Source: Lachnospiraceae bacterium
GTDB taxonomy: Bacteria > Bacillota > Clostridia > Lachnospirales > Lachnospiraceae
Length of the DNA stretch: 64,000 bases
Assembly (NCBI GenBank): GCA_021200475.1
Contig: JAJQGP010000003.1
Span: 18,836 to 82,835 of the forward strand
Direction: 5' to 3'
In this document: positions 30,733 to 49,004 of the stretch, one piece after another
How the letters are laid out: every line of letters begins with the position of its first letter
How positions within the stretch are numbered: the stretch's first letter is position 1
Program-made: the position numbers and the translations under genes
The notes under the pieces: generated by a model
Told to the model about the DNA's origin: nothing
What the model saw: only the letters and a program-made list of their open reading frames with translations
Database searches by the model: none

Positions 30733-30775
30733 GTGAATTGTGATAATGGAAGCGCGAGTGAGAATGAACCGTGCG

Positions 30776-30837
30776 GTTACAGGTCACACCTGCAGTGGTT
30801 GAAAGAAAGCAGGTTTGGCTATGGTGTGACCTGTAAC
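30776..30837. repeat. Family-B 62 bp element
   Basis: Perfect 15 bp IR GTTACAGGTCACACC/GGTGTGACCTGTAAC. Confidence 0.9.
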
Positions 30838-30908
30838 CCGTGCGGAAGTAGAAGTGCGGGGGAATCAGTCGCGGATGGAAACGCAAGGATGGAAGGATGG
30901 AAAGCATC

Positions 30909-31685
30909 ATGCTGGAAAGAATTTTTGACGTGGATAACCCCGTGTGGCGGGCAATTGATAAGGTGGGTAAGATTTTTTTGCTGAACCTGGTCTGGGTGAT
31001 CTGTTCTCTGCCGGTTTTTACGATGGGAGCCGCGACGACGGCGCTGATGTACAGCAGTATGAAGCTGCAGCAAAATGAGGGTTACTGGTACAAAAATTTT
31101 TTCCATTCCTTTGTACAGAATTTTAAACAGGCGACCGGCATATTTCTGCTTTATCTGGTCGTGGGGATTTTACTGGTGGCGGATTTCATCCTCGGCGGGC
31201 AGCAGGGGGGCGCGTTTGGAATGTTGCTGCAGTGCGGTGCGGGCATTATTGCGATCCCGTATCTTTTGTCACTGCTGTATGTGTTCGGGGTGCAGGCGAA
31301 ATTTGTGAATCCGGTGAAGGCAACGATTCGCTACGCGTTTTTCATGGCACTTCATAATTTGAAGGGAACGCTCCAGATGGTGATTTTGATGGTGCTCTTT
31401 ATCTGGGTCAATACCCTGACACAGCTGGCAAATTACCTGACGATTATATACGGATTTGGGCTGATTGGTTATTGCATGGCAGCGTATCAGAGAAAGGCGT
31501 TTGAGAAATACATCAGGAGCGCAGAAAGCCCGGCGGAGTATGGAGAAGAGAGCAGTGAGTTTGTGATATCCGAGGAAGGCCTGGATGCACTGGCCCGGGA
31601 GCAGGGAAAGCTGGAAGGAGCGCCTGGAAAACCAGTGGGCGCAGCAGATGAATCGCAGAGGGAGAGAATGAAAGCTGAAAAATAA
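30909..31685 (+). CDS. YesL/DUF624-family membrane protein
   Basis: LNLVWVICSLPVFTMGAATTAL, FFHSFVQNFKQAT; sits in a sugar ABC cluster. Confidence 0.85.
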   Translation: MLERIFDVDNPVWRAIDKVGKIFLLNLVWVICSLPVFTMGAATTALMYSSMKLQQNEGYWYKNFFHSFVQNFKQATGIFLLYLVVGILLVADFILGGQQGGAFGMLLQCGAGIIAIPYLLSLLYVFGVQAKFVNPVKATIRYAFFMALHNLKGTLQMVILMVLFIWVNTLTQLANYLTIIYGFGLIGYCMAAYQRKAFEKYIRSAESPAEYGEESSEFVISEEGLDALAREQGKLEGAPGKPVGAADESQRERMKAEK

Positions 31686-31736
31686 AAGGCAGGGGATTCG
31701 CTGACAAAAGAAGAACGAGGGAGGCGATAAGAAAAA

Positions 31737-32879
31737 ATGGACAGGATTGAGAAGTACATAGATGAGCTGCTGGCAAAGAGTACGCCGGATCAGCCCGCGT
31801 GGAACATTGAAAAGATTTTGCAGGGGCTGAAGTCGAACTGGAATTACATCGACGGCTGTATGATTAAGGCAGTTCTGGAGATGTACGCGATCACCGGAAA
31901 TCAGAAATATTTTGCTTTTGCGGATGCGTTTATCGACGCGAAGGTACGCGAGGACGGAACGATTGACGGCTACTCGGTCGAGGAGCTGAACATCGATAAT
32001 GTCAATGCCGGTAAGACACTTTTTGAGCTCTATGATCTGACCGGAAAGGAAAAATACCGCAGGGCGATTGATCTGGTATACAGCCAGATCGGGCAGATGC
32101 CCCGCACGAAGGAAGGCAGCTTCTGGCACAAAAATATTTATCCGAATCAGGTGTGGCTGGACGGACTGTATATGTGCCAGCCGTTTTACATGGAGTACGA
32201 GACCCGATTTGATGAGAAAAAGAAGTACGACGACATTTTTCGCCAGTTCTTTACTGTGCAGGAAAATATGAGAGACCCGAAGACCGGCCTTTATTATCAT
32301 GCGTGGGACTCCTCGCGGCAGATGTTCTGGTGTGACCGGGTGACAGGTCTGAGCCAGAATTTCTGGCTGCGCGCACTGGGCTGGTTTTCCATGGCCCTGC
32401 TGGATACGCTGGATAAGACGGACGCTTCGGCGGCTCCGGAGGCATACGGCCGGATGAAGGAGATGTTCCTCGATCTGATGGACGCGCTCCTGAAGTATCA
32501 GGACGAGAGTGGCATGTGGTACCAGGTTGTCAATTTCGGCGGCATGGAGAAGAACTATCTGGAGACGAGCGGCAGTTCGATTCTGGCGTATGCGCTGTTA
32601 AAAGGCGTGCGACTTGGATTTTTGCCGGAATCGTACCGGGAATATGGCGAGAAAGCCTTTCATGGTGTCTGTGAGAACTATCTGTCGGAGGATGAGCATG
32701 GAAGCCTGCATCTGGGCGGTATCTGCCTGGTAGCGGGACTCGGCGGCAAGGGCAACCGGCCGGGAACGTATGATTATTATATGTCGGAGCCGGTGGTAAA
32801 GGATGACGCGAAGGGTGTGGGGCCGTTTTTGCTGGCCTATACCGAAATGCGCAGAGCCGGGAAGATAGATAAAAGGTAA
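31737..32879 (+). CDS. Unsaturated (rhamno)galacturonyl hydrolase (GH105, YteR/YesR-like)
   Basis: WNYIDG, LDGLYM, YYHAWD, FWLRALGW, ETSGS motifs. Confidence 0.9.
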   Translation: MDRIEKYIDELLAKSTPDQPAWNIEKILQGLKSNWNYIDGCMIKAVLEMYAITGNQKYFAFADAFIDAKVREDGTIDGYSVEELNIDNVNAGKTLFELYDLTGKEKYRRAIDLVYSQIGQMPRTKEGSFWHKNIYPNQVWLDGLYMCQPFYMEYETRFDEKKKYDDIFRQFFTVQENMRDPKTGLYYHAWDSSRQMFWCDRVTGLSQNFWLRALGWFSMALLDTLDKTDASAAPEAYGRMKEMFLDLMDALLKYQDESGMWYQVVNFGGMEKNYLETSGSSILAYALLKGVRLGFLPESYREYGEKAFHGVCENYLSEDEHGSLHLGGICLVAGLGGKGNRPGTYDYYMSEPVVKDDAKGVGPFLLAYTEMRRAGKIDKR

Positions 32880-32930
32880 AAATGGAAAAAGAAAGGAACG
32901 GTTCTGAACGATTGCAAAGGAGGGAGAGGC

Positions 32931-34019
32931 ATGGAACACAAAAATCCGCTGCTTGAGGAGCGGGACACGGCGGAGAAATTTATCACCATCGGTGAGATTA
33001 TGCTGCGTCTGACGCCGCCGAATTACGAGAAAATCCGCGTGGCGACATCGTTTGAGGCCAGCTACGGAGGCAGTGAGGCGAACATTGCGCTGGCGCTCGC
33101 AAATCTGGGGATTGACAGCACATTCTTTTCGGTTGTGCCGAACAACAGTCTGGGAAAGAGCGCAATCCGTATGCTTCGGAGCAATGATGTACACTGTACT
33201 CCGGTGATCTTAAGCAGTCCGGAGCAGACGCCGACGCACCGGCTGGGGTCATACTATCTGGAGACCGGTTATGGGATCCGCGCAAGCAAGGCGACCTATG
33301 ACCGGAAGCACAGCGCCATCTCGGAATTTGATTTCAGCGAGATTGACCTGGATGCGCTGTTTAAGGGCTTTACCTGGCTGCATCTGAGCGGCATTACGCC
33401 GGCTCTGGGACAAAACTGCCGCGACCTGATCCTGCGCAGTCTGAAGACAGCGAAGGAGAAGGGAATGACTGTCAGCTTTGACGGAAATTTCCGCAGTAAG
33501 CTCTGGGCCTGGGAGGAGGCACGGGATTTCTGTACACTGTGTCTTCCCTACGTGGACGTTCTGCTCGGGATTGAACCCTATCATCTCTGGAAGGATGAGA
33601 ATGACCACAGCAAGGGCGATGTGAAGGACGATATCCCGTTCCGTCCGGCTTATGAGGAGCAGGACGAAGTCTTTCAGGTCTTTGTGGAGCGCTATCCGAA
33701 CCTCAAGTGCATCGCACGCCACGTCCGCTACGCGCACAGCGGCAGCGAGAACAGCCTCAAGGCTTTTATGTGGTATGAGGGGCATACCTTTGAGAGTAAA
33801 ATGTTTACCTTCAACATCCTCGACCGCGTGGGTGGCGGCGATGCTTTTGCGAGCGGCCTGATCTACGCGATGATGCACAAATACCGTCCGATGGATATGA
33901 TCAATTTTGCAGTGGCGAGCAGTGCGATTAAGCACACGATTCGCGGCGATGCGAACATCACGGACGATGTGTCCACCATCCGCAACCTGATGAATATGAA
34001 TTACGATATCAAGAGGTGA
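32931..34019 (+). CDS. kdgK: 2-keto-3-deoxygluconate kinase (PfkB family)
   Basis: GEIMLRL, GGSEANIA, DGNFR, DRVGGGDAF; uronate gene context. Confidence 0.85.
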   Translation: MEHKNPLLEERDTAEKFITIGEIMLRLTPPNYEKIRVATSFEASYGGSEANIALALANLGIDSTFFSVVPNNSLGKSAIRMLRSNDVHCTPVILSSPEQTPTHRLGSYYLETGYGIRASKATYDRKHSAISEFDFSEIDLDALFKGFTWLHLSGITPALGQNCRDLILRSLKTAKEKGMTVSFDGNFRSKLWAWEEARDFCTLCLPYVDVLLGIEPYHLWKDENDHSKGDVKDDIPFRPAYEEQDEVFQVFVERYPNLKCIARHVRYAHSGSENSLKAFMWYEGHTFESKMFTFNILDRVGGGDAFASGLIYAMMHKYRPMDMINFAVASSAIKHTIRGDANITDDVSTIRNLMNMNYDIKR

Positions 34020-34028
34020 CGTGCGCGG

Positions 34029-35252
34029 ATGGACACGAATTATAATCTGAAACAGAGGAATGCCGGGTATGCTGCTTTTTTTCTCAGTGGAATCTGTGCG
34101 ATCAGCAGCAGCATTGTGGTCAGCCGCCTGCAGGGGAGCTATGGGTTTGCCTATGGGATGACCGGTACGCTTTTATCGCTGATGAGCATCGGAAATCTGA
34201 TCTCAGGGTTTCTGACCGGGTTTTTGCCGACGAAAATCGGCACCCGGCTGACGGTGGCGCTTCTGACCACAGGATACGCGATCGGTTATTTTGCCATGGG
34301 GCTGACCGGGTGGATGGGGATTCTGATGCTGGCGTTTGTACTGGCAGGGCTGGCAAAGGGCTGTACGCTTAACACGTGCACGATTCTTGTGGGCAACAAT
34401 TCCCCTGACCGTACCAGAGGCATGAATGTCATGCACGCCTGCTACGCGCTCGGTGCGCTGCTCTGCCCGTTTTTCATTTCGGCGGCGGCGAGGGCGGGCA
34501 GTTTTGTTCCCCTGTTTGTACTGGCCGCGTTTGGCCTGGTATTGTGGCTGGTTTTCCTCTGTACGCCGCTGGAGATGCGAACAGCTGCGAACGAAAACGG
34601 AACGGCTGCGAAAAGCGGCGAAACCGTCGTGTGTGAAAATGGAAAAACGGCGAAAGCGCAGGGCAGAGCGCTGACGGGGAAAAAGACGGACTGGAGCTTT
34701 CTGAAAAGTAAGAAATTCTGGCTGCTGACGGGACTGATCTTCTGTCAGAATGCGGCGGAATACAGCGTCAATGGCTGGATGGTGACGTATTTTAAAAACA
34801 GCGGGATTATTTCCGGAAATTTCAGCACCTATACGGTTACGGTGATGTGGGGCGCAACCCTGCTGGGGAGATTGCTGATCGCGTTTGTCTTCCCAATCAA
34901 AAATGCCTGCCGGGCGATGATCCGCATGAGCCTGGGCTGCATTGTATTTTATCTGGGACTGATGCTGGTCGGCAGTCAGATTCCGGCTGTCCTGCTGCTG
35001 TTTGCGTTTGCGTTTTCCATGGCGGGCATGAATCCGACCGCGGTCGCCAGCGCAGGGCGTATGACAAGCGCCGCGAGTATGGGAATCATGCTTCCGGTCG
35101 CGGGCATCGGAGCGATTGTGATGCCGTGGATTGCGGGCGTGATTTCAGAGCACGCGGGACTCGGCGTAGGGATGACTTCCAATATTGTGCCGTGTGTGGG
35201 ATTGTTTGTGTTCGCGGTTCTGGTGGCACGGGTGCGTGAGGAGGGAAATTAG
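34029..35252 (+). CDS. MFS transporter
   Basis: About 12 TM helices in 6+6 arrangement, NVMHACYALG motif. Confidence 0.88.
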   Translation: MDTNYNLKQRNAGYAAFFLSGICAISSSIVVSRLQGSYGFAYGMTGTLLSLMSIGNLISGFLTGFLPTKIGTRLTVALLTTGYAIGYFAMGLTGWMGILMLAFVLAGLAKGCTLNTCTILVGNNSPDRTRGMNVMHACYALGALLCPFFISAAARAGSFVPLFVLAAFGLVLWLVFLCTPLEMRTAANENGTAAKSGETVVCENGKTAKAQGRALTGKKTDWSFLKSKKFWLLTGLIFCQNAAEYSVNGWMVTYFKNSGIISGNFSTYTVTVMWGATLLGRLLIAFVFPIKNACRAMIRMSLGCIVFYLGLMLVGSQIPAVLLLFAFAFSMAGMNPTAVASAGRMTSAASMGIMLPVAGIGAIVMPWIAGVISEHAGLGVGMTSNIVPCVGLFVFAVLVARVREEGN

Positions 35253-35354
35253 CGGATGCGGCAGTAATCAATCATAAAAACGGCGGTGGACCTGTCACAC
35301 AGGAACCATCCGTTTTGTATAAAAAGTAAATAATTTCATATGGAGGGATGAAAA

Positions 35355-36854
35355 ATGGAGAAGTTAAATTATGCAGTGCTGAAGGAAACCGGCTACAAGG
35401 GTTACATTCTGGAAAAGGCACCGGAGAAGGTGATGCAGTTTGGGGAAGGTAATTTCCTGCGCGCATTTGTGGATTACTGGTTTGACCTGGCGAATGAAAA
35501 AGCCGGCTGGAATGGCAAGTGTGTCCTGGTGCAGCCGATCGGCGGCGGTCTCGCGAAGATGATCAATGAACAGGAAGGACTTTATACGCTGCATCTGCGC
35601 GGCAGCCAGAATGGGGAAAAGGTAGACGACGCACGTGTGATCTCCAGCGTCAGCCGCTGCCTGAATCCGTATGAAAAAGAAGATTATGATAAGATGATGG
35701 CGGTAGCCGAAAGCGACGACCTGGAGATCATCGTTTCAAATACGACGGAGGCTGGTATCGTTTATGATCCGGCATGTCAGGAAGAGGATTGCCCGCCTTC
35801 CAGCTTTCCGGCGAAGCTGACCCAGGTGCTGCTGCGCCGTTATCATGCCGGGAAGCCGGGGATTATTATGCTGGCGTGCGAGCTGATTGATAACAATGGG
35901 AAGGAGCTTCTGAAATGTGTCAATCAGTACATTGACCAGTGGGGACTGGAGGATGGATTCCGGAAATATGTCAATGAGGACTGTACGTTCTGCGGTTCTC
36001 TGGTAGATCGTATTGTGCCTGGCCGTATCCGTGACCCGAAAGAAGTGGCGGCGCTCGAGGAGTTTCATGGCTACGCTGATCCGCTTCTTGACGTAGGTGA
36101 GGTCTTTGGTCTCTGGGTGATTGAGGGGGATGAATCGCTGAATGATGTTCTTCCGTTTGCAAAAGCGGGACTGAAGGAACGGGTATTTGTTACGCCGGAT
36201 ATGAGCCCGTATAAAAAGCGCAAGGTTCGTATCCTCAATGGCGCGCACACCGGCTTTGTGCTGGGCGCATACCTGTCTGGCGAGAACATTGTGCGCGACT
36301 GTATGTATGACGAGACCATCAAAGGTTTCATGAATAAAATGCTCTACGATGAGGTGATTCCGACGCTTCCGCTGGATAAGGATGACCTGCTGGCGTTCGC
36401 CTCTGCGGTACAGGATCGTTTCAACAATCCGTTCGTGGACCACGAGCTGATGAGCATTTCCCTGAACTCGACCTCCAAGTGGAAGGCCCGCAATATGCCG
36501 TCCTTCCTTGAGTACATCGAGCTGAAAGGGGAGCTGCCGATCTGCCTGACCACTTCGCTGGCGGCGTACATCGCGTTCTACAGCAATGACATCCAGGAGC
36601 TGACGGACAAAGGCCTTGTGTGCAGACGGCCGGCAGGAAATGAATACGTGATCAGCGACGACCGCTGGGCGCTGGAATTCTACTATGAGCACAGAGCGGA
36701 CAGTGCAGAGGAGCTGGTGCACGCGGTTCTGACCAATGAGAAGATGTGGGGGCAGGATCTGGCGCAGATCGCCGGACTGGAAGCAAAGGTGGTTGAAATC
36801 TTAAAGAAAATCCGCACGGAAGGAGCAAAGGCGGCATATGCGGCCTGCCTGTAA
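35355..36854 (+). CDS. uxaB: Tagaturonate reductase (altronate oxidoreductase)
   Basis: QFGEGNFLRAF, SNTTEAGI, LVDRIVPG, KVRILNGAHT. Confidence 0.95.
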   Translation: MEKLNYAVLKETGYKGYILEKAPEKVMQFGEGNFLRAFVDYWFDLANEKAGWNGKCVLVQPIGGGLAKMINEQEGLYTLHLRGSQNGEKVDDARVISSVSRCLNPYEKEDYDKMMAVAESDDLEIIVSNTTEAGIVYDPACQEEDCPPSSFPAKLTQVLLRRYHAGKPGIIMLACELIDNNGKELLKCVNQYIDQWGLEDGFRKYVNEDCTFCGSLVDRIVPGRIRDPKEVAALEEFHGYADPLLDVGEVFGLWVIEGDESLNDVLPFAKAGLKERVFVTPDMSPYKKRKVRILNGAHTGFVLGAYLSGENIVRDCMYDETIKGFMNKMLYDEVIPTLPLDKDDLLAFASAVQDRFNNPFVDHELMSISLNSTSKWKARNMPSFLEYIELKGELPICLTTSLAAYIAFYSNDIQELTDKGLVCRRPAGNEYVISDDRWALEFYYEHRADSAEELVHAVLTNEKMWGQDLAQIAGLEAKVVEILKKIRTEGAKAAYAACL

Positions 36855-36919
36855 TACAAGGATTTTGAAGCGAAGCATGAAGAAATCCGTCGTATTACAT
36901 AAATTAAGGGAGAAGCACC

Positions 36920-38407
36920 ATGAATTCAATAAAAACCATACAGATCGCCCCAGATGACAACGTTGCAGTGGCGCTCCATCCGATCGCGAAGGGCGAGCAG
37001 CTGGAGATGGGAGGCCAGACGCTGGCAGCTCTGGAGGACATTCCGCAGGGGCATAAGATCGCCATTCGTGCGATCAAAGAAGGAGAGAACGTCATAAAAT
37101 ACGGGTTTCCGATCGGCCACGCGACGAGTGACGCGGCGGCGGGGACCTGGATGCATACGCATAATGTAAAGACCAACCTCTCCGGGGAAGTCGCGTATAC
37201 ATACCAGCCGGCACTGGATTATCCGGAGCCGGTCGAGCCGGAGCTGTTTTCCGGCTTTCGCAGAAAGGACGGGCGTGCAGCGATCCGCAACGAGATCTGG
37301 ATTATTCCGACTGTGGGCTGTGTCAATGATATCGCAAAGAATCTGGTAAGGGAAAACCAGGATCTGGTAACGGGAACCATCGACGGACTGTATGCCTTCA
37401 CGCATCCGTTCGGCTGCAGCCAGACCGGCGCAGATCACGCGCAGACCAGAAAGCTTCTGGCGGCGCTGGCGCGGCACCCGAACGCGGCGGCGGTGCTGGT
37501 GCTGAGCCTGGGCTGTGAGAATCTGACGCACGAGCAGTTTCTGGAGGAGCTGGGAGAATACGATGCCGATCGCGTAAAATTTCTGACCTGTCAGGAGGTA
37601 GAGGATGAATACGAAGCAGGCCGTGCGCTTCTTACGCAGTGCGCCCAATACGCCGCACAGTTTGTGAGAGAGCCGATTCCGGTGAGCGAGCTGGTGGTCG
37701 GCATGAAATGCGGCGGTTCCGATGGTCTGTCCGGCATTACCGCGAACCCGGCGGTCGGCCGTTTCAGTGATATGATGATTGCCCGCGGCGGTTCCACGGT
37801 ATTGACAGAAGTACCGGAGATGTTCGGCGCGGAGGGCTTCCTTATGAACCGCTGCGCGGATGAGAAGATCTTTGAAAAAGCGGTAGATATGATCAACGGC
37901 TTCAAAAACTATTTCCTCAGCCACAACGAGGTGGTTTACGAAAATCCAAGCCCAGGCAATAAAAAGGGCGGCATTACGACCCTCGAAGACAAATCCTGCG
38001 GCTGTGTGCAAAAGGGCGGCACCGCTCCGATCATGGATGTGATCGGGTACGGCGATCCGGTGGTAACAAAAGGACTGAACATGCTTTACGGCCCGGGCAA
38101 TGATCTGGTCTCCGCGACTGCAATGACTGCGGCAGGGGCACACATGATCCTCTTTACAACCGGCCGCGGCACTCCATTTGGGGCACCGGCACCGACCGTA
38201 AAGATCGCGACGAACAGCCAGCTGGCCGCGAAGAAAAAAGGCTGGATTGACTTTGATGCGGGTACCATTGCGGACGGAGAGCCGATCGACGCCGCGGCAG
38301 AGCGGCTTTTAAAGCTCGTGATTGAGATCGCCAGCGGCCGGCAGACTCTGACCGAGCAGCATGGCTGCCGGGAAATCTCCATTTTTAAGGATGGCGTGGT
38401 ACTGTAA
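36920..38407 (+). CDS. uxaA: Altronate dehydratase
   Basis: N-terminal SAF domain, PTVGC, HPFGCSQ, GMKCGGSDG, NPSPGNKKGG, FTTGRGTP. Confidence 0.93.
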   Translation: MNSIKTIQIAPDDNVAVALHPIAKGEQLEMGGQTLAALEDIPQGHKIAIRAIKEGENVIKYGFPIGHATSDAAAGTWMHTHNVKTNLSGEVAYTYQPALDYPEPVEPELFSGFRRKDGRAAIRNEIWIIPTVGCVNDIAKNLVRENQDLVTGTIDGLYAFTHPFGCSQTGADHAQTRKLLAALARHPNAAAVLVLSLGCENLTHEQFLEELGEYDADRVKFLTCQEVEDEYEAGRALLTQCAQYAAQFVREPIPVSELVVGMKCGGSDGLSGITANPAVGRFSDMMIARGGSTVLTEVPEMFGAEGFLMNRCADEKIFEKAVDMINGFKNYFLSHNEVVYENPSPGNKKGGITTLEDKSCGCVQKGGTAPIMDVIGYGDPVVTKGLNMLYGPGNDLVSATAMTAAGAHMILFTTGRGTPFGAPAPTVKIATNSQLAAKKKGWIDFDAGTIADGEPIDAAAERLLKLVIEIASGRQTLTEQHGCREISIFKDGVVL

Positions 38408-38500
38408 TACATGAAACAGAGATGACTGGATGGATCCGCAGGAAGGCATGCTGCTGTCCTGCGGATTATCTATGCGCAGGGGCGCGAGAGGAAGATTAAG

Positions 38501-39023: not shown

Positions 39024-39722
39024 ATGAGAAAAAAAGGATTTGTTTTATTATGCCTGCTGGCTCTTTTTTCATCAGGAACAGTGTATGCCGAAGAGAGCAG
39101 GGCTTCGATCCTGCCGCTGCCGGCGGCAATTGATCTGGAAGCCATCGGGGATGGCATTCCGTATACCATACGGATTGTGCGCAGCGATCTTTCGGTTTTT
39201 GAGGGTCCCGGATATGATTATAGCTGCTGTAGCGCGATCTGGGAGAGCGGTACCTATACGATTGTTGAGGAAGCGCAGGATGAAGAAGGCAGCCTCTGGG
39301 GAAAGCTGAAATCCGGCATTGGCTGGGTGAATCTGGAGGAAGCAGTAAGCGAAGAAGCGGCGCAGTTCCCAATTACAGCGGTGTATGCAGAGGAGCAGAT
39401 GCTGGAAGAATACCGCTGCGTGGAATATCAGGCCACCGATTCGGAACAGCTTGTGAAGGTGGCGTTTCGCCCCAATGAGGCGCTTAAGGACGTGAAGCTT
39501 TCTCTGCTTGCATACGGCGAGGACGGCACCTGGGAGCTGGGAGAGGAGCTGTACGTATTGTCTGAGCTGCTGCCCGGGATGGCTTTTGTGGCAGGCGTTG
39601 AGTTCTATGGTGATATGACGGCCTATGGAATTTCCTTCACGGATGCGGACGGTTCGGAACGCAGCTTTGCGGTTCATATCAGCGGCAGAAATGGAGAACT
39701 TCTTCTGGATGAGTATAAGTAG
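39024..39722 (+). CDS. Secreted protein with SH3-like domain
   Basis: Signal peptide MRKKGFVLLCLLALF..VYA; GPG....; WGKLKSGIGWVNL SH3b-type motif. Confidence 0.7.
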   Translation: MRKKGFVLLCLLALFSSGTVYAEESRASILPLPAAIDLEAIGDGIPYTIRIVRSDLSVFEGPGYDYSCCSAIWESGTYTIVEEAQDEEGSLWGKLKSGIGWVNLEEAVSEEAAQFPITAVYAEEQMLEEYRCVEYQATDSEQLVKVAFRPNEALKDVKLSLLAYGEDGTWELGEELYVLSELLPGMAFVAGVEFYGDMTAYGISFTDADGSERSFAVHISGRNGELLLDEYK

Positions 39723-40074
39723 TTACTGGTCATACCCTGACCAGATTTACCTTATTTTGTAACAGTTCAGGATAAAAACAAAGCACGGGCAGGGAGAAAA
39801 TCTCCCTGCTCGATTCTGTTCCGGGTTTGTTCTGGCGGTGCTACAGGTCACACCTGTAGTGGCTAAAAGAACGTAAATTGGTCAAGGTGTGACCTGTAAC
39901 CTGGCGTTACTGGTCACAACCCGACCACGCACTTGCTGCGTGGTCAGGGTTGAAAACGTAGTGGAAACAGCATCCGGCCCCATCGCGCAGCGATTTCAAT
40001 TGGCCGGATGCCGTTATAGGTCACACCCGTAGAGGTAAAAATAAGGTTAATTTGGTCGGGGTGTGACCTGTAAC
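39722..40074. repeat. Mosaic cluster of family-B elements (39722-39770 partial, 39840-39900, 39906-39955 variant, 40013-40074) with a C-like hairpin at 39786-39816
   Basis: Repeated GTTAC(A/T)GGTCACAC ends and GGTGTGACCTGTAAC ends. Confidence 0.85.
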
Positions 40075-40200
40075 AACCTGGCGGAAAAAGAAAAGAGGGC
40101 GGTCAGGTTCTGCTTGCAGAAGAGAGAAAATACAGGTATAATCTGTGAAAATGAAAAGAGGTCTGGATGATAGACCGGATGAACTGGAGGAATTATCAGG

Positions 40201-43200
40201 ATGCGATTATTCAATGACAACTGGGAATTTTCAAAAAATGAAGAAGCATTTTCTCCTGTAGGTCTGCCCCATGACTGGGCGATTGCCGGTACGGAAACAT
40301 TTTATGAGGATGCTCTTGGCCGTTACAGGAAATTTTTTACATGGAAGAGACAGCCGGATGAACGGGTTTTTCTGCGCTTTGACGGTGTATATATGGACAG
40401 CCGCTATTATCTGAATGGAGTGCTTGTCTGGGAGTGGAAGTATGGGTATTCCGCATTTGAGTTTGAGATTACGGATGCTCTGAAGGAGGGGGAGAATGAG
40501 CTCCTGGTGACGGTGGATTTCCGCAATCCGAACAGCCGCTGGTATTCCGGCGCGGGTATTTACCGGAACGTGTGGCTGCGTACGACGCACGAGCAATACC
40601 TGGCCGCCGATGGCATATACTTCCATACGGAACGGCGCCCATCGCGAAAGAATTCCGGAACGGACGCTGCGGTCTGCTGCCAATCGCAGGGAAGGAGCGA
40701 TTCCATACGGCGAAAGGATCTGGAAACGGACTCTGCGTCAGGAGAGCTCTGGGAGGTTCAGCTTCAGGTGGAGGTATGGGGATCAGGAGTGGAAGTGGAG
40801 GTTGCGCTTCTGGACGGAGAGAATACCGTCTTTTTGTCCGGAAAAGGAGAATTGCAGCCGAAGGAGGAAGCATATTCCCTTTATCGCTTCTGCGGTCAGG
40901 TGGAGAACCCGGTGCTCTGGGATATTGAGAATCCGTATCTATACTGTCTGCGTGTGGATTTGCTTCGGGATGGCGAGGTCATCCAGCGTAAGGAGCAGAT
41001 GATCGGATTCCGCACGACGGAATTTACCCCGGAGGAAGGGTTCTTATTAAATGGAAGAAAGGTGAAGCTGAACGGTGTCTGCGATCACCATGACCTCGGC
41101 TGCCTGGGCAGTGCATTTCATCCGCAGGCGATGGAACGGAAGCTGCGGATTTTAAAGGAGATGGGAACCAATGCGCTTCGCCTGTCTCATAATATGCCGG
41201 CGGCGGGACTGATGGAGCTGACGGACCGGCTGGGGATTCTGGTGGTATCGGAGGCGTTTGATATGTGGGAATCGCCAAAGACCCCCTACGATTACGCGCG
41301 GTTTTTCCCGGAATGGTATCAGGCGGATGTGGCGAGCTGGATTCGGCGAGACCGGAACCGGCCGAGTGTGATCATGTGGAGCATTGGAAATGAGATTCAT
41401 GATACGCATGCCAGTGAAAAGGGACAGGAATGGACGCGCCGCCTGCTCGCCGAGGTGGCGAAGCATGACCCGCTTAAAAATGCGCGCCCGACGATCGGCT
41501 CAAACTATATGCCGTGGGAGAACGCGCAGAAATGTGCGGATATTGTGAAGCTGGCGGGCTATAATTACGGGGCAAATTATTATGAGGAACATCACCGAAA
41601 ACATCCCGACTGGGTGATTTATGGGAGCGAGACGGGGTCGGTGGTGCAGAGCCGGGGAATTTACCATTTCCCGTACACGAAATCGGTACTGGCGGATGAG
41701 GATCAGCAATGCTCTTCCCTGGGAAATTCGACGACAAGCTGGGGTGCGAAATCGCATGAGGAGTGCATCGCGGCGGAGTGGGAGCATCCGTATTCCTGCG
41801 GGCAGTTTTTGTGGTCCGGATTTGATTACATCGGGGAGCCAACCCCCTATCATACGAAAAATTCTTATTTTGGCCAGGTGGATACGGCGGGCTTCCCGAA
41901 GGATTCGTATTACTGCTATCAGGCAGCCTGGACGGATTACCGGAAAAAGCCGATGGTGCACCTGTTTCCTTACTGGGATTATAACGAAGGACAGGAGATC
42001 GATGTGTGCGTGTATTCGAATGCGCCCGCGGTAGAGCTGTTTCTGAACGGGGAAAGCCAGGGAATCAGGGTCTTACACAGCAGAGGAGGCGATACGGACG
42101 GTGCTGTCCTCTGCCAGGAAAAATCCGCAAAGCCGGAGGAGCTGCATGCGCGGTCAGAGAAGGACCGCCGTATTTCCGCGACCTGGCGCATGCTTTACCG
42201 GGCGGGCGAGATCCGCGCGAAAGCATATGACGAAAATGGAAGGCTGATTGCGGAGGATGCGCATCGGTCTTTTGGTGAATCTGCGAAAATCATCCTGACG
42301 CCGTCTTTGCCGCAGAATCCTGTGTGCAGTGTGCCCGAAACGGATGCCGTCCCCTGCCGCAGGCAGCAGGGGAGGGGCGATTCCCTGCTGCCGGGAAGAC
42401 TGACGGCGAATGGCAATGATCTGCTTTTTGTAGAAATTACCATGGAAGACGCGCAGGGAAATCCGGTAGAAAACGCGGTAAATCGGGTAAAGGTATCTGT
42501 GACAGGCGCAGGTGCACTGGTCGGCACGGATAATGGGGACAGTACCGACCGGGAGAGCTATAAAAGCGGCAGCCGCAGGCTGTTTAGCGGCAAATTGCTT
42601 GCGGTGGCTAAGACCGGAATGAAAGCCGGTGAACTGGTGATGACCGTCACTTCACCGGGACTGCCGGCGGCGGTGCTGACTGTGCCGGTGGCGGAAGGAA
42701 CACCGGAACCGGGCAGCAGTCCGCTGGCCTATCTGGCGGACCCGGCGGGCCTGGAAACAGAGAATGATATCATTGGCGGGGAGGAAGCAGCAGCGGATGA
42801 CATTCCGGTGCGCGCGATCCGACTGAAAAGCATGGACGGGATTCACCTTACGAAGGAACATCCCAAGATCCTTGTGACCGCGACGATCTGTCCCGCATCC
42901 GCGACGGACCGGTCGCTGGCCTGGAGTGTTGTGGATGATGCCGGCATTCCGCTTTCCATTGCCGCGCTGGAACCGCTGGATGCTTCCTTCCGGCAGCCGG
43001 ATGCGGATGCATGCGTTCTTGTCCGGGCGAAGAGTGATGGCAAATTCCGCCTGCGCTGTACCTCCCGGAGCGGGAAAAAAGAGGTGCGCATGATTTCCCA
43101 GCTGGAATTTACCGCGGAAGGTCTGGGAACTGCGTTCCTGGATCCATATGGTTTTATTACAGGCGGCCTCTATGACTACAGCCAGGGCGAACCGGGAAAC

Positions 43201-43896
43201 GGAAATGAACACGGGGTGGCGACCGGGCGCGACGGGGAGACACAGGTGGGGTACCATTTCATCGACTTCGGACCGGAGGGCTCCAATGAGATCACCCTGC
43301 CGATTTTCGCACTGGAGGGAGAACCGCACCGGATTCAGATTTATGAAGGGATGCCTGGTGAGGACGGCGCGGAGCTGATCGGGGATGTCGTCTATCAGAA
43401 GCCGTCGATCTGGAACACCTATCAGGCGGAAACCTATCGTCTGAAGTGGCATCTGCGGGGGGTGACAAGCCTGTGCTTTGTCCTGCAGGAGAAGATTCAT
43501 ATTAAGGGCTTTTCGTTTGCCCGTCAGATCCGCGCGTATGAGCAGCAGAATGCATATGACTGCATCAATGTCTACGGTGACTGCTTTGCGCGGGATGGCG
43601 AGTGGGTGCGCGGGATCGGAAACAATGTCACGCTGGAGTTTGGCGAGATGGATTTTGGGGAAGAAGGCGCCGTCCGGATTACGATTGCCGGCTGGACGCC
43701 GCTTGAGAAAAACAGCATTGTTTTACGTTTGGAAGCAGACGCCCAGGAGCGTGTTGTATTGGAATATACGGGCGGACAGGAAGAACAGAGCTTCGCGGTC
43801 GGGCCAATCCGCGGGAAACAGAAGGTGAGCTTTGTCTTTCTGCCGGGCTGTCAGTTCGATTTCCACTGGTTTCAATTTACCGGAGCGCAGGCATAG
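40201..43896 (+). CDS. Large GH2 glycosidase (beta-galactosidase-like)
   Basis: LRFDGVY, RWYSGAGIYR, NALRLSHN, WSIGNEI, YGSE, WSGFDYIGEP. Confidence 0.9.
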   Translation: MRLFNDNWEFSKNEEAFSPVGLPHDWAIAGTETFYEDALGRYRKFFTWKRQPDERVFLRFDGVYMDSRYYLNGVLVWEWKYGYSAFEFEITDALKEGENELLVTVDFRNPNSRWYSGAGIYRNVWLRTTHEQYLAADGIYFHTERRPSRKNSGTDAAVCCQSQGRSDSIRRKDLETDSASGELWEVQLQVEVWGSGVEVEVALLDGENTVFLSGKGELQPKEEAYSLYRFCGQVENPVLWDIENPYLYCLRVDLLRDGEVIQRKEQMIGFRTTEFTPEEGFLLNGRKVKLNGVCDHHDLGCLGSAFHPQAMERKLRILKEMGTNALRLSHNMPAAGLMELTDRLGILVVSEAFDMWESPKTPYDYARFFPEWYQADVASWIRRDRNRPSVIMWSIGNEIHDTHASEKGQEWTRRLLAEVAKHDPLKNARPTIGSNYMPWENAQKCADIVKLAGYNYGANYYEEHHRKHPDWVIYGSETGSVVQSRGIYHFPYTKSVLADEDQQCSSLGNSTTSWGAKSHEECIAAEWEHPYSCGQFLWSGFDYIGEPTPYHTKNSYFGQVDTAGFPKDSYYCYQAAWTDYRKKPMVHLFPYWDYNEGQEIDVCVYSNAPAVELFLNGESQGIRVLHSRGGDTDGAVLCQEKSAKPEELHARSEKDRRISATWRMLYRAGEIRAKAYDENGRLIAEDAHRSFGESAKIILTPSLPQNPVCSVPETDAVPCRRQQGRGDSLLPGRLTANGNDLLFVEITMEDAQGNPVENAVNRVKVSVTGAGALVGTDNGDSTDRESYKSGSRRLFSGKLLAVAKTGMKAGELVMTVTSPGLPAAVLTVPVAEGTPEPGSSPLAYLADPAGLETENDIIGGEEAAADDIPVRAIRLKSMDGIHLTKEHPKILVTATICPASATDRSLAWSVVDDAGIPLSIAALEPLDASFRQPDADACVLVRAKSDGKFRLRCTSRSGKKEVRMISQLEFTAEGLGTAFLDPYGFITGGLYDYSQGEPGNGNEHGVATGRDGETQVGYHFIDFGPEGSNEITLPIFALEGEPHRIQIYEGMPGEDGAELIGDVVYQKPSIWNTYQAETYRLKWHLRGVTSLCFVLQEKIHIKGFSFARQIRAYEQQNAYDCINVYGDCFARDGEWVRGIGNNVTLEFGEMDFGEEGAVRITIAGWTPLEKNSIVLRLEADAQERVVLEYTGGQEEQSFAVGPIRGKQKVSFVFLPGCQFDFHWFQFTGAQA

Positions 43897-44045
43897 ATGC
43901 AGGGAGAAAAACGATACCGTTTAAGCAAAAAGTGAGCAGTGGAAAGCAATTATTTTGGAGCAGAAAAGAGAGAAACTTTTTATAATAGACTGATCGGAAG
44001 AAGTCAACGATAGGAATAACGGAATTGGAAGGGACGGATCGTTTT

Positions 44046-47000
44046 ATGGCGGAACTGAGGCTGGAAGGCTACATAAATGTGATTCTGGATCCCGCGGCTG
44101 CGCAGGGAATTCGCAGGATTGGAGCAAAGGTGGCCGTGGATGTTGAAGCGGTAACGGGAGCAAAGAGCCAGATTATTATGCCGGGAGGGCATTTGCCGCA
44201 GGCAATTCTGGTCGCGGAGCTGGGACATGATGCGCTGGCAGATGTTCTGGTGGAGCGAATCCCGGAGCTTGGCACACTGAAGGACAAATGGGAGAGCTAT
44301 GGCTTTTATCTGGTGGAGCATCCGCTGCCGGAGGTGGAGCAGGGACTTGTGATTGTGGGAAGTGACCGGATTGGCACCATTTACGGAATGTTCCATCTGT
44401 CAGAGCTCCTCGGCGTGACTGCGTGGGGCTTTTGGGGAGATGCCAGGCCGCCGAAGCTGGGAAGTGTGCTTCTGACGGATCAGGAGAGGGTGCAGCCGGA
44501 AGAGACGGCAGTTTCTGAAGCAGGCAGGTATCCTTACAACAAGGCCAAAACGGACAAAACAGCCATGTATCTTTCGGCGGCTGGAATGAGCGGCTTTCTG
44601 AATGACCAGCAGCCCCCTCAGACACCGTGCGATGCGGCTGTCATTCCGGTAAAAAATGGGATTTCAAAAGAGCCTTCGGTGAAATACCGCGGATTTTTTA
44701 TTAACGATGAATGGCCGTGCTTTGGCAGCTGGACGTTTTCTCACTATAAGGGGTTCACTGCCGAGATGTATGACAGAATATTTGAATATCTGCTGCGCAT
44801 GAAGGGAAATTATCTGTGGCCAGCCATGTGGTCTTCTTCCTTTTTGCTGGACGGGCCGGGGCTTGCCTCCATGGAGCTGGCGACGGAATACGGTATTTTT
44901 ATCGGGATGTCCCATCATGAGCCGTGTATGCGCTCCGGTGAGGAGTTTTCCATTTTTAAGGGCGAGCATTCCCCTTATGGAAAGGACTGGAGCTATGAGA
45001 AGAATAAGGAAGGGCTGCTGAAGTTCTGGGAGGACGGCTTGAGCCGTGTGAAAGGGCAGAATATTTTCCCAACGATCGGTATGCGCGGGGAGAATGATTC
45101 GAAGATGCTGGGTGAGGATTCGACCGTGCAGGAAAATGTCCGCCAGCTAAAGGAGATCATCACGGAGCAGAGAAAGCTGATTGCAAAACATATTAACCCG
45201 GATCTGAAGCAGGTGCCGCAGCTCCTTGCCATTTATAAGGAAGTAGAGGATTACTTTTTTGGAAACAGCGAGTCTGCGGGACTGCGGGATTTTGAAGAGC
45301 TGGACAATGTGACGCTGATGTTCTGCGAAGACAATTTCAACAACATGCGTGCGCTGCCGCAGGACTTCTGCCGCTGTGTGGATGACGGGCAGACGGCGGA
45401 TGGAAAGCTGCGCTCTCATGCGGGCGGCTATGGGATGTATTATCATGTGGATTACCACGGCAGCCCGATTTCCTATGAGTGGGTGAACTCTACGCCGCTT
45501 ACGAAAATCTGGGAGCAGATGACACAGGCCTGGGAATATGGCATTCGTGAAGTCTGGATTCTCAACGTCGGCGATGTCAAATTTAATGAATATCCGCTGG
45601 GGTATTTTCTGTCGCTGGCGTACGACTTTGAAACTTACGGGTGTGCGGACCCGACGAAGCCTTCCTGTGATGCTTTGCATCGTAAAAACGCAGATGTGCC
45701 CGGCAGCGCGCAGATGGCGGAGGCTTCCAAGGGGCAGGCTGCGGAAGCATTTTATGGAAGAAAAGGCTATGAAAACACGCTTGCCTATCCTGCAGTCTGG
45801 GTGCGTTCCCTGTTTGACGCTTACGCAGACGAAGAGCAGCTGACCGATATTACCTGGGTGCTGGAAGAGTCCACGCGGCTTCACAGTCTGCGCAGGGCGG
45901 AGGCATTGAACGATACGATTTACCACCCGGCGCACTACGGGGAGGCGAAGAGAATGCTGACCCGTGCGGAAGCGCTGGAGAAGAAAAATGAGGAACTGCG
46001 GGGAATGCTTGAGAAGACGCCCTGCGGGGATGGATACTACAGTATCATTTATTTTCCGGCGGCCGGTATCGCGAATCTTCTGAAAATGCACCTGTATGCA
46101 GGACTGAATCATCTGTACAGCGCACAGGGCAAGGCGGCCGCGAACCAGTATGGAGAAAAGCTGGAAGCCTGCATGGAAAGAGATCGGGCGCTTGCAGCGG
46201 AGATGGCTGCATTTAAAGGCGGAAAATGGAGCGGTATGGAGCGCGAAGAGCATATCGGTTTTGTAAACTGGAATGATGAGGATTACCGCTATCCGGTGCG
46301 TCATGTGATGACACTCCCGAATCACCCGCGTCTGGTGGTATCGCGCGCGGATCGGACGCAGACCTTTACAAATCAGTATTTTCCGGTGCCGCTGGTGATT
46401 GACGATTTCCGGAATGCCGGAGCTGATGAGGTAGTCCTTGAGATCGCAAATGGCGGCCAGGGCGCAGTTGACTGGAAGATTGAGGGAGCAGACGACTGCT
46501 TTGAGATTACCCCGAAGGAAGGCCGCACGGAGCTGATCACGGAAGTGCGGATCCGTTTCCTGCGGGAGCGGTTTCTGGAAAAGAGGCGCGCCGATGCGTC
46601 CGCGCAGGAAAAGCAGGATTCTTTCTGCGGGCATGAAGCGGCAGTTCACAGCGAAGGGTGTGACAGCGCAGAATTCCCGTGTGCGGTTGTCGCCGGACGG
46701 GAGCGTGTGCCGCTGCTGCTCCGGGCGGGAATAAAAGATCTGGAGGCGGTGCCGGACGGAGCATTCCTGGTTCAGGATGGCATCTGCGTCTGGGATGCAG
46801 CTGCGTTTACGGATCATACCTCCATCGGCAGTGCCGCCTTCCAGGTGCTGGAGGAGTACGGAAAATACGATTCAGCCGTGAAGGTCTTCCCGACTACGGT
46901 GCGATTTGGAAAAGAAGAGTGGAGCCAGAGTGCTGCGCCGTCTCTCACCTATGAAATCTGGGCGGAGGAGGCCGGAGCGTATTGTCTGACGCTGCATACC

Positions 47001-47312
47001 TCCCCGGCAAATCCGCTCATCTACGGCGGGAAGCTTCGTGTGGGCCTGGCGGTCAACGGAGCGAATCCGGAGACGGTGACCATCACCGGCGAGGGCTACC
47101 GGGGCGGCGATCCGGGCTGCGCCGCATGGTGTCAGGCGGTGCTTGACCAGGAGCATAAAGCGAATACGTGTGTAAGCCTGCGGGAAGGCTTAAACCGGAT
47201 TACCGTTTACGCAGGGGATGCCGGGATTGCGCTGGAACGCTTTACCCTGGTAAAAGAGGGGGCGGAGCTTCTGCCGTCCTATCTGGGAGCAGATGTCAGC
47301 TATCGAAAGTAG
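44046..47312 (+). CDS. GH115 alpha-glucuronidase
   Basis: EPSVKYRGFFINDEWP, YLWPAMW, SHHEPC, GMRG, GMYYHVDY, NVGDVK. Confidence 0.88.
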   Translation: MAELRLEGYINVILDPAAAQGIRRIGAKVAVDVEAVTGAKSQIIMPGGHLPQAILVAELGHDALADVLVERIPELGTLKDKWESYGFYLVEHPLPEVEQGLVIVGSDRIGTIYGMFHLSELLGVTAWGFWGDARPPKLGSVLLTDQERVQPEETAVSEAGRYPYNKAKTDKTAMYLSAAGMSGFLNDQQPPQTPCDAAVIPVKNGISKEPSVKYRGFFINDEWPCFGSWTFSHYKGFTAEMYDRIFEYLLRMKGNYLWPAMWSSSFLLDGPGLASMELATEYGIFIGMSHHEPCMRSGEEFSIFKGEHSPYGKDWSYEKNKEGLLKFWEDGLSRVKGQNIFPTIGMRGENDSKMLGEDSTVQENVRQLKEIITEQRKLIAKHINPDLKQVPQLLAIYKEVEDYFFGNSESAGLRDFEELDNVTLMFCEDNFNNMRALPQDFCRCVDDGQTADGKLRSHAGGYGMYYHVDYHGSPISYEWVNSTPLTKIWEQMTQAWEYGIREVWILNVGDVKFNEYPLGYFLSLAYDFETYGCADPTKPSCDALHRKNADVPGSAQMAEASKGQAAEAFYGRKGYENTLAYPAVWVRSLFDAYADEEQLTDITWVLEESTRLHSLRRAEALNDTIYHPAHYGEAKRMLTRAEALEKKNEELRGMLEKTPCGDGYYSIIYFPAAGIANLLKMHLYAGLNHLYSAQGKAAANQYGEKLEACMERDRALAAEMAAFKGGKWSGMEREEHIGFVNWNDEDYRYPVRHVMTLPNHPRLVVSRADRTQTFTNQYFPVPLVIDDFRNAGADEVVLEIANGGQGAVDWKIEGADDCFEITPKEGRTELITEVRIRFLRERFLEKRRADASAQEKQDSFCGHEAAVHSEGCDSAEFPCAVVAGRERVPLLLRAGIKDLEAVPDGAFLVQDGICVWDAAAFTDHTSIGSAAFQVLEEYGKYDSAVKVFPTTVRFGKEEWSQSAAPSLTYEIWAEEAGAYCLTLHTSPANPLIYGGKLRVGLAVNGANPETVTITGEGYRGGDPGCAAWCQAVLDQEHKANTCVSLREGLNRITVYAGDAGIALERFTLVKEGAELLPSYLGADVSYRK

Positions 47313-47368
47313 AAAAAGTGCGGGATGCCACCTGGCGTTTCCGATGCTTCAAAGAAAGGAGAGCAATT

Positions 47369-48418
47369 ATGAACGGAACAATGAAAACGGCGGTTATGAC
47401 AGATATCCGCAAGGTTGAGATTCAGAGACGGCCGATCCCGGTACCCGAAGAGGATGAGGTCCTGGTAAAAATCGAGTACGTAGGTATCTGCGGTTCTGAC
47501 CTGCACTATTATGAGGCGGGAAGAATCGGAGATTTTATCGTGGAACCGCCATTCGTGCTTGGACATGAGGCGGGCGGCACAGTCGTCGAGGTTGGCAGCA
47601 ATGTAAAAAACCTGAAGGTCGGCGACCGTGTGGCACTGGAACCGGGCAAGACCTGCGGGCACTGCGAATTCTGTAAACAGGGCAAGTATAACCTGTGTAA
47701 GGATGTGGTCTTCTTCGCTACGCCGCCGGTGGACGGTGTCTTTCAGGAGTATGTGGCGCATGAGGCAGGACTTTGCTTCAAGCTTCCGGAGAACGTAAGT
47801 ACGCTGGAGGGAGCGCTGATTGAGCCGCTGGCGGTCGGTATGCACGCAGCAAACCAGGGCGAGGCGCATCTGGGACAGACAGCGGTTGTAACCGGTGCCG
47901 GCTGCATCGGTCTGGTATCTCTTCTTTCTCTGAAAGCGAGAGGTGTTTCTAAAGTCATTGTTGTGGATGTGATGGACAAGCGCCTGGAGAAAGCGAAGGA
48001 GCTGGGCGCGGACGAGGTGATTAACGGTGCGAAGGAAGACACGGTGGCACGGATCGCTGAGATTACCGGTGGTGCGGGCTTTGATCTGGGCATTGAGACA
48101 GCCGGCTCACAGATCACAGCGCAGCAGCAGATCCGCGCGGCAAAGAAGGGTGCGACGATTGTCTTTGTAGGCTACAGCCCGTCCGGCGATATGACGCTTC
48201 CGATCGGAACTGCGCTTGACAAGGAGCTGACCTTTAAGACGGTCTTCCGCTACCGCAATATCTACCCGATGGCAATTGACGCGGTATCCTCCGGTAAAAT
48301 TCACATCAAAGATATCGTGACCAATTATTTTGAGCTGGATGACATCCAGAATGCGCTGGATTCCTGTGTGGACAATAAGGCGGAGATAGTAAAGGGCGTA
48401 ATCCGGGTTGCGGAATAA
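47369..48418 (+). CDS. Zn-dependent NAD(P) polyol dehydrogenase (sorbitol/xylitol dehydrogenase family)
   Basis: GICGSDLH, GHE, structural-zinc Cys cluster, FATPPVDG, GAGCIG; AGGAG SD before 47369. Confidence 0.9.
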   Translation: MNGTMKTAVMTDIRKVEIQRRPIPVPEEDEVLVKIEYVGICGSDLHYYEAGRIGDFIVEPPFVLGHEAGGTVVEVGSNVKNLKVGDRVALEPGKTCGHCEFCKQGKYNLCKDVVFFATPPVDGVFQEYVAHEAGLCFKLPENVSTLEGALIEPLAVGMHAANQGEAHLGQTAVVTGAGCIGLVSLLSLKARGVSKVIVVDVMDKRLEKAKELGADEVINGAKEDTVARIAEITGGAGFDLGIETAGSQITAQQQIRAAKKGATIVFVGYSPSGDMTLPIGTALDKELTFKTVFRYRNIYPMAIDAVSSGKIHIKDIVTNYFELDDIQNALDSCVDNKAEIVKGVIRVAE

Positions 48419-48449
48419 ACCCAGACCACGAGCGGTAATGAAAAGTCAC

Positions 48450-48564
48450 GTAACTATTCAAAGCAGCAGCCCGCAGGTTTACGCTCCGCTTCGGTCGGCG
48501 CTAAGCGAGCGCCACTGGCGCTCCGCACCTGTCTTTTCATTTCGATGCTGTTCTGAATTGTTAC
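48450..48564. repeat. Family-A element
   Basis: GTAACTATTCAAAGCAGCA...TGCTGTTCTGAATTGTTAC; internal hairpin GAGCGCC-ACT-GGCGCTC. Confidence 0.85.
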
Positions 48565-48629
48565 AAAGTCACATATGAAGAAACAGGCGGGATTCGCATG
48601 TCTGAGATTGTGCGAATCCCGTGAACATT

Positions 48630-48837
48630 TTTTGCACACCCGGGAGACTGGCTATTTGCTGGTTTTTCCCGGGTTATTCACATTATCCACAATTTTATGC
48701 ACACCTGTGCCCGGGAGGAAAAAGGAAAATTTTGTGGATAACAAGATTTACATAATTATTCGACAAAATCCGCCAGTTTAGGGTTCTGGAATCTGGAAAA
48801 AGGAATTATTGTCAACCAGTTATCCACATTATCCACA
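48630..48837. promoter_or_regulatory. DnaA-box cluster
   Basis: Perfect TTATCCACA at 48683, 48733 (reverse), 48820 and 48829; TTWTNCACA matches at 48630, 48674 and 48695. Confidence 0.85.
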
Positions 48838-48892
48838 CAATTCACAGGAAAAGTGGCGGGGAAAACTCTTTCCCCCGGTGGAAAAGTAGCGG

Positions 48893-48921
48893 TTCTCATT
48901 TTGGAAGAAGTATGTTATACT
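48893..48921 (+). promoter_or_regulatory. Putative dnaD promoter
   Basis: TTCTCA, 17 bp spacer, TATACT with extended -10 TG. Confidence 0.55.
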
Positions 48922-48942
48922 CTTCCAAAGATGAAAAAGCGG

Positions 48943-49004
48943 GCTACAGGTCACACCTTGACCAGATTTATCTTATTTATACATTTACAGGTGTGACCTG
49001 TAAC
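48943..49004. repeat. Family-B 62 bp element (opposite orientation)
   Basis: GCTACAGGTCACACC...GGTGTGACCTGTAAC. Confidence 0.9.

Follow-up and report, generated by a model that had tools for sequence, protein, structure and literature searches.

Family B, a 61- to 62-bp inverted-repeat element of a Lachnospiraceae genome, is very probably a non-autonomous transposon with an IS66/ISBst12-type partner

A repeated element in the window

The stretch analyzed here (the window) comprises 64,000 nucleotides of a Lachnospiraceae bacterium, positions 18,836 to 82,835 of contig JAJQGP010000003.1 (C49), in an assembly (GCA_021200475.1, hereafter G000) that is 98% complete but fragmented (3.22 Mb in 180 contigs, 50% GC); its gene content (DnaD-like, DUF624) points to gut Lachnospiraceae. 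The window carries several copies of a short repeat, family B, which is very probably a non-autonomous DNA transposon of 61 to 62 bp, i.e., a MITE (miniature inverted-repeat transposable element), mobilized by a transposase of the IS66/ISBst12 type. Four copies lie exactly where an earlier reading of the window's sequence (the original prediction) had placed them, with the core inverted in 48943-49004 only; a fifth, truncated copy came from a profile search. The features of family B in the window are as follows (coordinates, strand, description):

30776..30837, plus strand: solo B copy 1, 62 bp, between a xylose-isomerase-like TIM-barrel gene and a DUF624 gene
30769..30775, no strand: left target-site duplication of copy 1, CCGTGCG, 7 of 8 bp readable, repeated at 30838-30844
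30838..30844, no strand: right target-site duplication of copy 1
39722..39758, minus strand: truncated B copy (model positions 26-62), the fifth window copy
39840..39900, plus strand: solo B copy B1, 61 bp; CTGGCGG(T) at 39832-39839, with the right-hand CTGGC..GG split by the composite
39906..40074, plus strand: composite MITE, 169 bp, made up of a family-A module, a spacer hairpin, and the B module B2
39906 to ~39966, plus strand: family-A module of the composite
39970-39979 and 40002-40011: arms of the spacer hairpin of the composite
40013..40074, plus strand: B2, the B module of the composite, 62 bp; its left end, GTTATAGG, lies inside the unit that transposes
48943..49004, minus strand: solo B copy 4, 62 bp, core inverted, no readable duplication

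The ends of the four copies read G(T/C)TA(C/T)AGGTCACACC ... GGTGTGACCTGTAAC. Each element consists of a 15- to 16-bp end, (C)GTTACAGGTCACACC, a 32-bp AT-rich core, and an inverted partner end; the terminal inverted repeats are perfect in several copies, and the core is alignable and directional, as originally claimed. The termini GTTAC/GTAAC are also common to families A and B, in agreement with the same source. An element of 61 to 62 bp has no room for an open reading frame (ORF) of its own. The 12-mer ACAGGTCACACC, allowing up to two mismatches, occurs 16 times in the window versus 2.9 expected (none of 100 shuffles reached 16), and the paired-end pattern of family B has seven exact matches in the genome versus none for a reversed control.

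The individual copies differ in their surroundings. Copy 1 lies in a spacer (window 30733-30900) formed by a purine-rich degenerate tandem repeat with units like GAGTGAGAGTGAA(A/C)CGCG, so its insertion target lay within a repeat unit; the tandem repeat is expanded in G055, another genome that carries family B. The truncated copy starts on the final base of the stop codon upstream of it; in its AT-rich core, the copy is cut off by a terminus of a further family, C (GTAACAGTTCAG, 39759-39771); a break after ...TTATTTT, as seen here, recurs at three other loci in G000. Copy 4 has a promoter-like site with an extended -10 (48893-48921) on one side and a dnaD-like gene, starting at 49081, on the other; by its position it would belong to the 5′ leader of that gene. 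The orientation of copy 4 yields the sole sigma-70-like match inside any B copy (TTGACC-16-TACATT, 9/12). We considered a promoter in the B core and dropped the idea: the consensus core has a poor -10, and copy 4 alone scores 9/12.

Genome-wide census, length, and divergence among copies

An nhmmer search of G000, with a profile built from 55 B copies, recovered 109 distinct B loci on many contigs, 76 of them full length: 49 stand alone (solo copies), and 27 form the right-hand module of composites of 167 to 208 bp. Pairing of ends in the same genome returned 71 elements, 52 of which fall into the modal class of 61 to 62 bp. The fixed length attributed to the family thus holds as a mode, but there are also variants of 55 to 68 bp, as well as the 167- to 208-bp composites, which share these outer ends.

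Pairwise comparison of the 55 paralogous copies gives 79% identity over the whole element, 87% within the ends, and 72% within the core, a contrast between ends and core that is inflated and partly built in because these copies were picked via their ends. As RNA or single-stranded DNA, B copies form a stem of 15 to 16 bp with a 30-nt loop (-26 to -30 kcal/mol, z of approximately -5 to -6); every copy folds in this manner because of its inverted repeats. The window has no Rfam match at the gathering threshold or at E values up to 1, the Clostridiales-1 motif included.

Two mini elements of 27 bp (G000 C65:8416-8442 and C18:8326-8352) consist of fused B ends, GTTACAGGTCACACC-TGACCAGTAAC. They probably arose by internal deletion between GGTCA repeats, and there is no clear duplication around either of them. 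At the end of contig C138, a half element resembling B continues into ordinary genes, with no insertion sequence (IS).

Target-site duplications and composites

The octamers flanking the 49 solo full-length copies match with zero, one, and two mismatches in 6, 13, and 6 copies, respectively, such that 8-bp target-site duplications (at most two mismatches) are present at 25 of the 49, versus 0.8 when flanks are re-paired. The 27 composite-type B modules share the left flank ...GGCCGGATGCC, and most of them have the left-end variant GTTATAGG (left flank ...GGATGCC). When the left end of A and the right end of B are taken as the boundaries, eight composites (167 to 208 bp) have perfect 8-bp duplications.

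The composite in the window (39906-40074), one of these eight, is bounded by a perfect duplication, AACCTGGC, at 39898-39905 and 40075-40082, and it transposed as a single unit. The segment 39840-40082 can be read as two nested insertions, B1 first and the composite second. B1 would have inserted first, duplicating CTGGCGG, and the composite would then have entered AACCTGGC, an octamer to which B1 contributes its final three bases and the flank of B1 the other five; this order regenerates 39840-40082 base for base.

Duplications are seen with elements of 57, 61 to 62, 167 to 170, and 208 bp that share ends, indicating that a fixed end spacing is not required. The original prediction had envisaged a protein that recognizes two sites at a fixed spacing, which does not hold for elements of 57 to 208 bp that have the same ends and perfect duplications; the protein reading the B ends is most plausibly a transposase.

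Empty sites and orthologous comparisons

Flanks in the sister species G015 are 94 to 98% identical to those of G000, and the two genomes share window copies 1 and 4 plus two other copies with perfect duplications. The shared copy 4 differs by six substitutions; G021 and G055 carry other sequence at this place. Empty sites are also apparent: a copy at G000 C1:31117 is absent from G015, where the octamer occurs once and is followed directly by the right flank (flanks 94 to 96% identical). B1 is absent from G015 as well (flanks ~95% identical), the spacer hairpin and B2 of the window composite are missing there, and G055 is empty at the place homologous to window copy 1, where CCGTGCGG occurs just once. 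This pattern of presence and absence in G015 and G055 indicates that some insertions predate the split of these species and others postdate it.

Some of the losses in G015 are partial. G015 is without 42 bp spanning the truncated copy (39722-39758) and the first bases of the family-C terminus, and its version of the composite stops inside the spacer (at the junction …GTAGTGGCAGCAAGCA/AAAAAG). These losses look like microhomology deletions that took parts of elements, not whole ones.

In a small sample of four orthologous pairs from G000 and G015, divergence amounts to 7/120 (5.8%) in the ends, 6/128 (4.7%) in the core, and 26/797 (3.3%) in the flanks. There is no sign of the host keeping the B ends, whose divergence is no lower than that of the core or of the flanks. 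The contrast drawn in the original prediction, of conserved ends around a drifting core, is therefore found among paralogues (inflated as noted above) but not in orthologues; since orthologues show no extra conservation of the ends, end conservation among paralogues reflects which copies could still transpose.

The region of copy 1 was found in an identical strain in a Logan assembly. For strain-level polymorphism, exact-protein look-ups returned nothing or the identical strain, and the right flank of the composite had no match in a metagenome scan.

Genomic context and orientation

Based on rough ORF-based gene calls, 66 of the 76 full-length copies are intergenic, beside unrelated genes: 46 lie between co-directional, 11 between divergent, and 9 between convergent genes, while eight overlap ORFs and two are at contig ends. 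These contexts roughly match the supply of each kind of spacer, from which it follows that family B, unlike repetitive extragenic palindromic (REP) elements, is not enriched at 3′ ends.

The directional core points along the leading strand, as inferred from GC skew, in 63 of the 76 full-length copies (83%), and it follows the direction of the genes in 38 of the 46 copies between co-directional genes; local GC skew is correlated with gene direction and the contigs are unordered, such that effects of replication and transcription are not separable in these counts. The ratio of orientations is 22:8 where neighboring genes give no single direction, and it reaches 17:2 in the youngest solo copies (those whose duplication has at most one mismatch). 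A marker-based count of orientation gives 34:22, no significant bias, for family C and 50:23 for family A. This 83% bias is the sole feature of family B that a specialist would not predict.

Because the bias is already present in young copies, an effect at insertion fits better than slow purging. We entertain, as a tentative proposal, that elements of the A/B type might be inserted preferentially one way round with respect to the replication fork or to transcription. If true, this would represent a strand-aware targeting step that is undescribed for IS66-family transposases and hard to reconcile with near-symmetric ends.

A different account of the bias, which would add to the MITE reading and strikes us as rather doubtful, holds that copies of MITE origin are weeded out or retained according to an effect on transcripts that depends on their orientation and resembles a weak terminator: a hairpin plus T-rich run on the mRNA strand would be purged from operons and the other orientation tolerated. 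The excess of cores following gene direction between co-directional genes would be expected under this account, every copy can form the 15- to 16-bp RNA stem described above, and the rarer orientation places a 5-bp hairpin, GGTCACACC(T/C)TGACC, and then a T-rich tail on the sense strand, an arrangement that was flagged as terminator-like. However, the flagged stem has only five pairs, the youngest copies already show the 17:2 ratio, the bias also holds where flanking genes set no single direction, and copy 4, which lies in the likely 5′ leader of the dnaD-like gene, has the “bad” orientation.

Distribution, related families, and candidate transposase

Family B is present in 10 of the 63 species of its genus, and the genomes bearing it include G000, G015, G021, G051, G054, G055, and G056. 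Searches of 16 further genera of the order, and of one genome from each of 399 further genera of the family, did not find family B.

Two further families accompany it in G000. Family A (GTTACTGGTCACAACC plus a hairpin with a 12-bp stem; window 39906-39966) is represented by 73 left ends, and solo copies move as a 61- to 66-bp unit with 8-bp duplications. The A left end shares 18 of 22 bases with the inverted B right end, and other A-led composites contain a different interior (…CTTATCCCGCACGAAGTGTGGGATGCCACCC…). Family C, a third MITE family (window 24623-24686 and ~48450-48567), has the ends GTAACAGTTCAGAAC / GTAACTATTCAGAAC and a length of 38 to 277 bp; its ends give 96 matches with at most one mismatch, its 8-bp AT-rich target duplications are perfect at at least 10 loci, and at several loci it has inserted into the AT-rich B core.

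A transposase flanked by the B motif, for which the original prediction had suggested a search, was not found in the G000 assembly. Neither long-range pairing of ends nor a duplication-guided search within 6 kb of unpaired ends recovered a full-length element with B ends in G000, where searches for an autonomous element returned composites and solo A elements only.

Members of the IS66 family generate 8-bp direct repeats, and canonical IS66 ends begin GTAAGCG (PMC11946415). ISDge4 of Deinococcus geothermalis, a single-ORF member of the ISBst12 group, has the ends GTAACTGCTCAGCA and GTGACTACTCAGCA, beginning GTAAC/GTGAC, and an 8-bp repeat (PMC12898284). Family B starts with GTTAC, not GTAA, as does the ISBst12-like group described below, and family C starts with GTAAC.

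Genus-mate G021 harbors an IS of 2,267 bp (contig C116; L022, 1218-3484) that terminates in GTTACTATTCACGG/AG and is flanked by a perfect 8-bp duplication. The protein it encodes, of 520 aa, has matches to DDE_Tnp_IS66 (E value of 1.9e-10; the DDE_Tnp_IS66 and zf-IS66 matches are weak) and, over its whole length, to the NCBIfam “IS66 family transposase” (E value of 8.9e-41; 140 bits, below the 180-bit cut-off). This copy of the IS also has an upstream 102-aa coiled-coil-like ORF. The same type of IS is present in genus-mate G051, and both G021 and G051 carry family B.

Homologues of the G021 transposase were collected at 118 loci (L062-L180) in gut Firmicutes genomes and metagenomes. Both ends are available at 64 of them, all of the form GTTAC[TCA][AG]TTCAC[AG]G, with lengths of 1.77 to 2.71 kb. 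The ends of this ISBst12-like group, GTTACTATTCACAG, are nearly invariant even though its transposases are 41 to 60% identical, and perfect 8-bp duplications were seen at 13 loci. The group, which has a single transposase, was found in gut Lachnospiraceae, Bacilli, Erysipelotrichaceae, and Acidaminococcus.

One pattern, GT(T/A)AC-NNN-TCA(C/G)A, fits the ends of B (GTTACAGGTCACAC), A (GTTACTGGTCACAA), and C (GTAACAGTTCAGAA). None of the 30 canonical IS66 loci in the genus has A-, B-, or C-like ends, with the exception of a truncated IS66-type element in G002, which bears the exact family-C right end GTAACTATTCAGAAC. Judged by the kind of ends that B has in common with the ISBst12-like group, GTTAC-NNN-TCACA, and by the 8-bp duplication, our best inference is that the partner of B would be an ISBst12-like IS66 transposase, and we infer that the cognate IS is absent from, or unassembled in, G000.

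It is unlikely that family B is instead mobilized by a transposase outside of IS66, such as one of ISL3, IS256, IS1595, or IS6, all of which also make 8-bp duplications, a trait that is therefore not unique to IS66. Consistent with such a source, no IS with exact B ends was found, and the only candidate in G000 among the families searched (Y1/RAYT, IS66, and ISL3) is an ISL3-like fragment, located at the start of contig C140 (C140:1-456). Yet this fragment has no adjoining A-, B-, or C-like end, the ends of all three families fit the ISBst12-like pattern (ISDge4 included), and the truncated G002 element that has an exact family-C end is of the IS66 type.

Family B as a MITE

The 8-bp duplications, the empty sites in relatives, and the roughly 110 dispersed copies bear out the part of the original prediction that regarded the repeat as a MITE, and they make it very probable that family B is a non-autonomous DNA transposon; its ends and 8-bp duplications point to a transposase of the IS66/ISBst12 type. 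Its repeats, duplications, and empty sites, its restricted distribution, and the lack of host constraint on its ends are direct observations, and family B has every feature by which MITEs are defined apart from a demonstrated cognate IS. Mechanistically, a DDE transposase supplied in trans would bind both B ends, cut the element out or copy it, and insert it at a staggered 8-bp cut, the repair of which would leave the 8-bp target-site duplication. The same ends also mobilize the longer units (A, hairpin, B; 167 to 208 bp), and hence only the outer ends matter.

Several observations weigh against this reading. Roughly half of the solo B copies are without a readable duplication, and an orientation bias as strong as that of family B is not expected of a DDE element with symmetric ends. 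No IS with exact B ends was found at the 118 transposase-homologue loci or in the genus, and the B ends differ from every sampled IS end at three to four of 14 positions, three in the nearest case, although the ends of that IS group hardly vary across transposases of 41 to 50% identity. G000 itself has no homologue of the G021 transposase (best tblastn E value of 0.45) and no PF03050 match, and four of the nine other B-bearing genomes (G015, G054, G055, and G056) are also without an IS66-type gene, which is weak evidence given that the B-bearing genomes are drafts or metagenome-assembled genomes (MAGs), kinds of assembly from which IS copies often drop out.

We place very little credence in the view, also raised in the original prediction, that B is an operator or nucleoid-protein site of the host, its two half-sites kept at a fixed spacing by selection. 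The ends do look more conserved than the core among paralogues, the length is mostly 61 to 62 bp, and the core contains A-tracts; however, in orthologous copies the ends are no better conserved than the core or the flanks. Moreover, the neighboring genes are unrelated and the contexts tandem, convergent, and divergent, the duplications and empty sites reveal insertion events, and variants with other spacings also carry duplications. Family B is not the operator of one regulon, and copies other than those in the window exist.

Hardly any probability attaches to the remaining branch of the original prediction, a REP doublet forming a hairpin (REPIN) that is processed as single-stranded DNA by a Y1 transposase (REP-associated tyrosine transposase [RAYT]): although B is short, has palindromic ends, is mostly intergenic and often in mosaics like bacterial interspersed mosaic elements (BIMEs), and is oriented along the inferred replication strand, as is known of single-strand transposons, G000 has no match to PF01797 (Y1_Tnp), which was matched in 6 of 14 control genomes, the copies are not enriched between convergent genes (9 of the 66 intergenic copies), and the 8-bp duplications mark staggered double-strand integration, whereas Y1 transposition leaves no target-site duplication.

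Significance and comparison with known systems

Family B is a new family of an ordinary kind of element, notable for its tiny size, its modular composites, and its orientation bias, and in itself adds one MITE family to a well-known class. Together, families A, B, and C, with several hundred copies in 3.2 Mb, account for many contig breaks and mosaic intergenic repeats. B insertions differ between species that are ~96% identical and serve as markers of strain and species history in an uncultured gut clade. With 32 bp between its ends, a 62-bp element also represents a stringent natural substrate for how an IS66-type transposase pairs two ends.

Among the papers searched, none described IS66-derived MITEs or dealt with MITEs of Lachnospiraceae, and a 2024 review of prokaryotic MITEs contains no mention of IS66 (PMC10969869). 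Among insertion sequences, those of the ISBst12 group resemble B in their ends, GT(T/A)AC-NNN-TCA(C/G)A, and in their 8-bp target-site duplication, but they are coding elements of 1.8 to 2.7 kb, whereas B is non-coding, 62 bp long, and different at 3 to 4 of 14 end positions. The ends of canonical IS66 start with GTAAGCG and those of B with GTTACAGG.

Bacterial MITEs, including the Correia elements of Neisseria, the pneumococcal RUP, Chunjie, and QMITE, are, like B, short and non-coding, with inverted repeats and duplications, and they are likewise multi-copy and mostly intergenic, with size variants and nested insertions (PMC10969869). Family B is far shorter than most of them (62 bp versus roughly 100 to 400 bp). 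The REP/REPIN and BIME mosaics of Proteobacteria are also short palindromic intergenic repeats arranged in mosaics, as B is. REPINs, however, need a RAYT (Y1) and make no target duplication, whereas B has clear 8-bp duplications in a genome without a RAYT; and, unlike a BIME mosaic, the segment of the window from 39722 to 40074 resolves into nested insertions, each with its own duplication.

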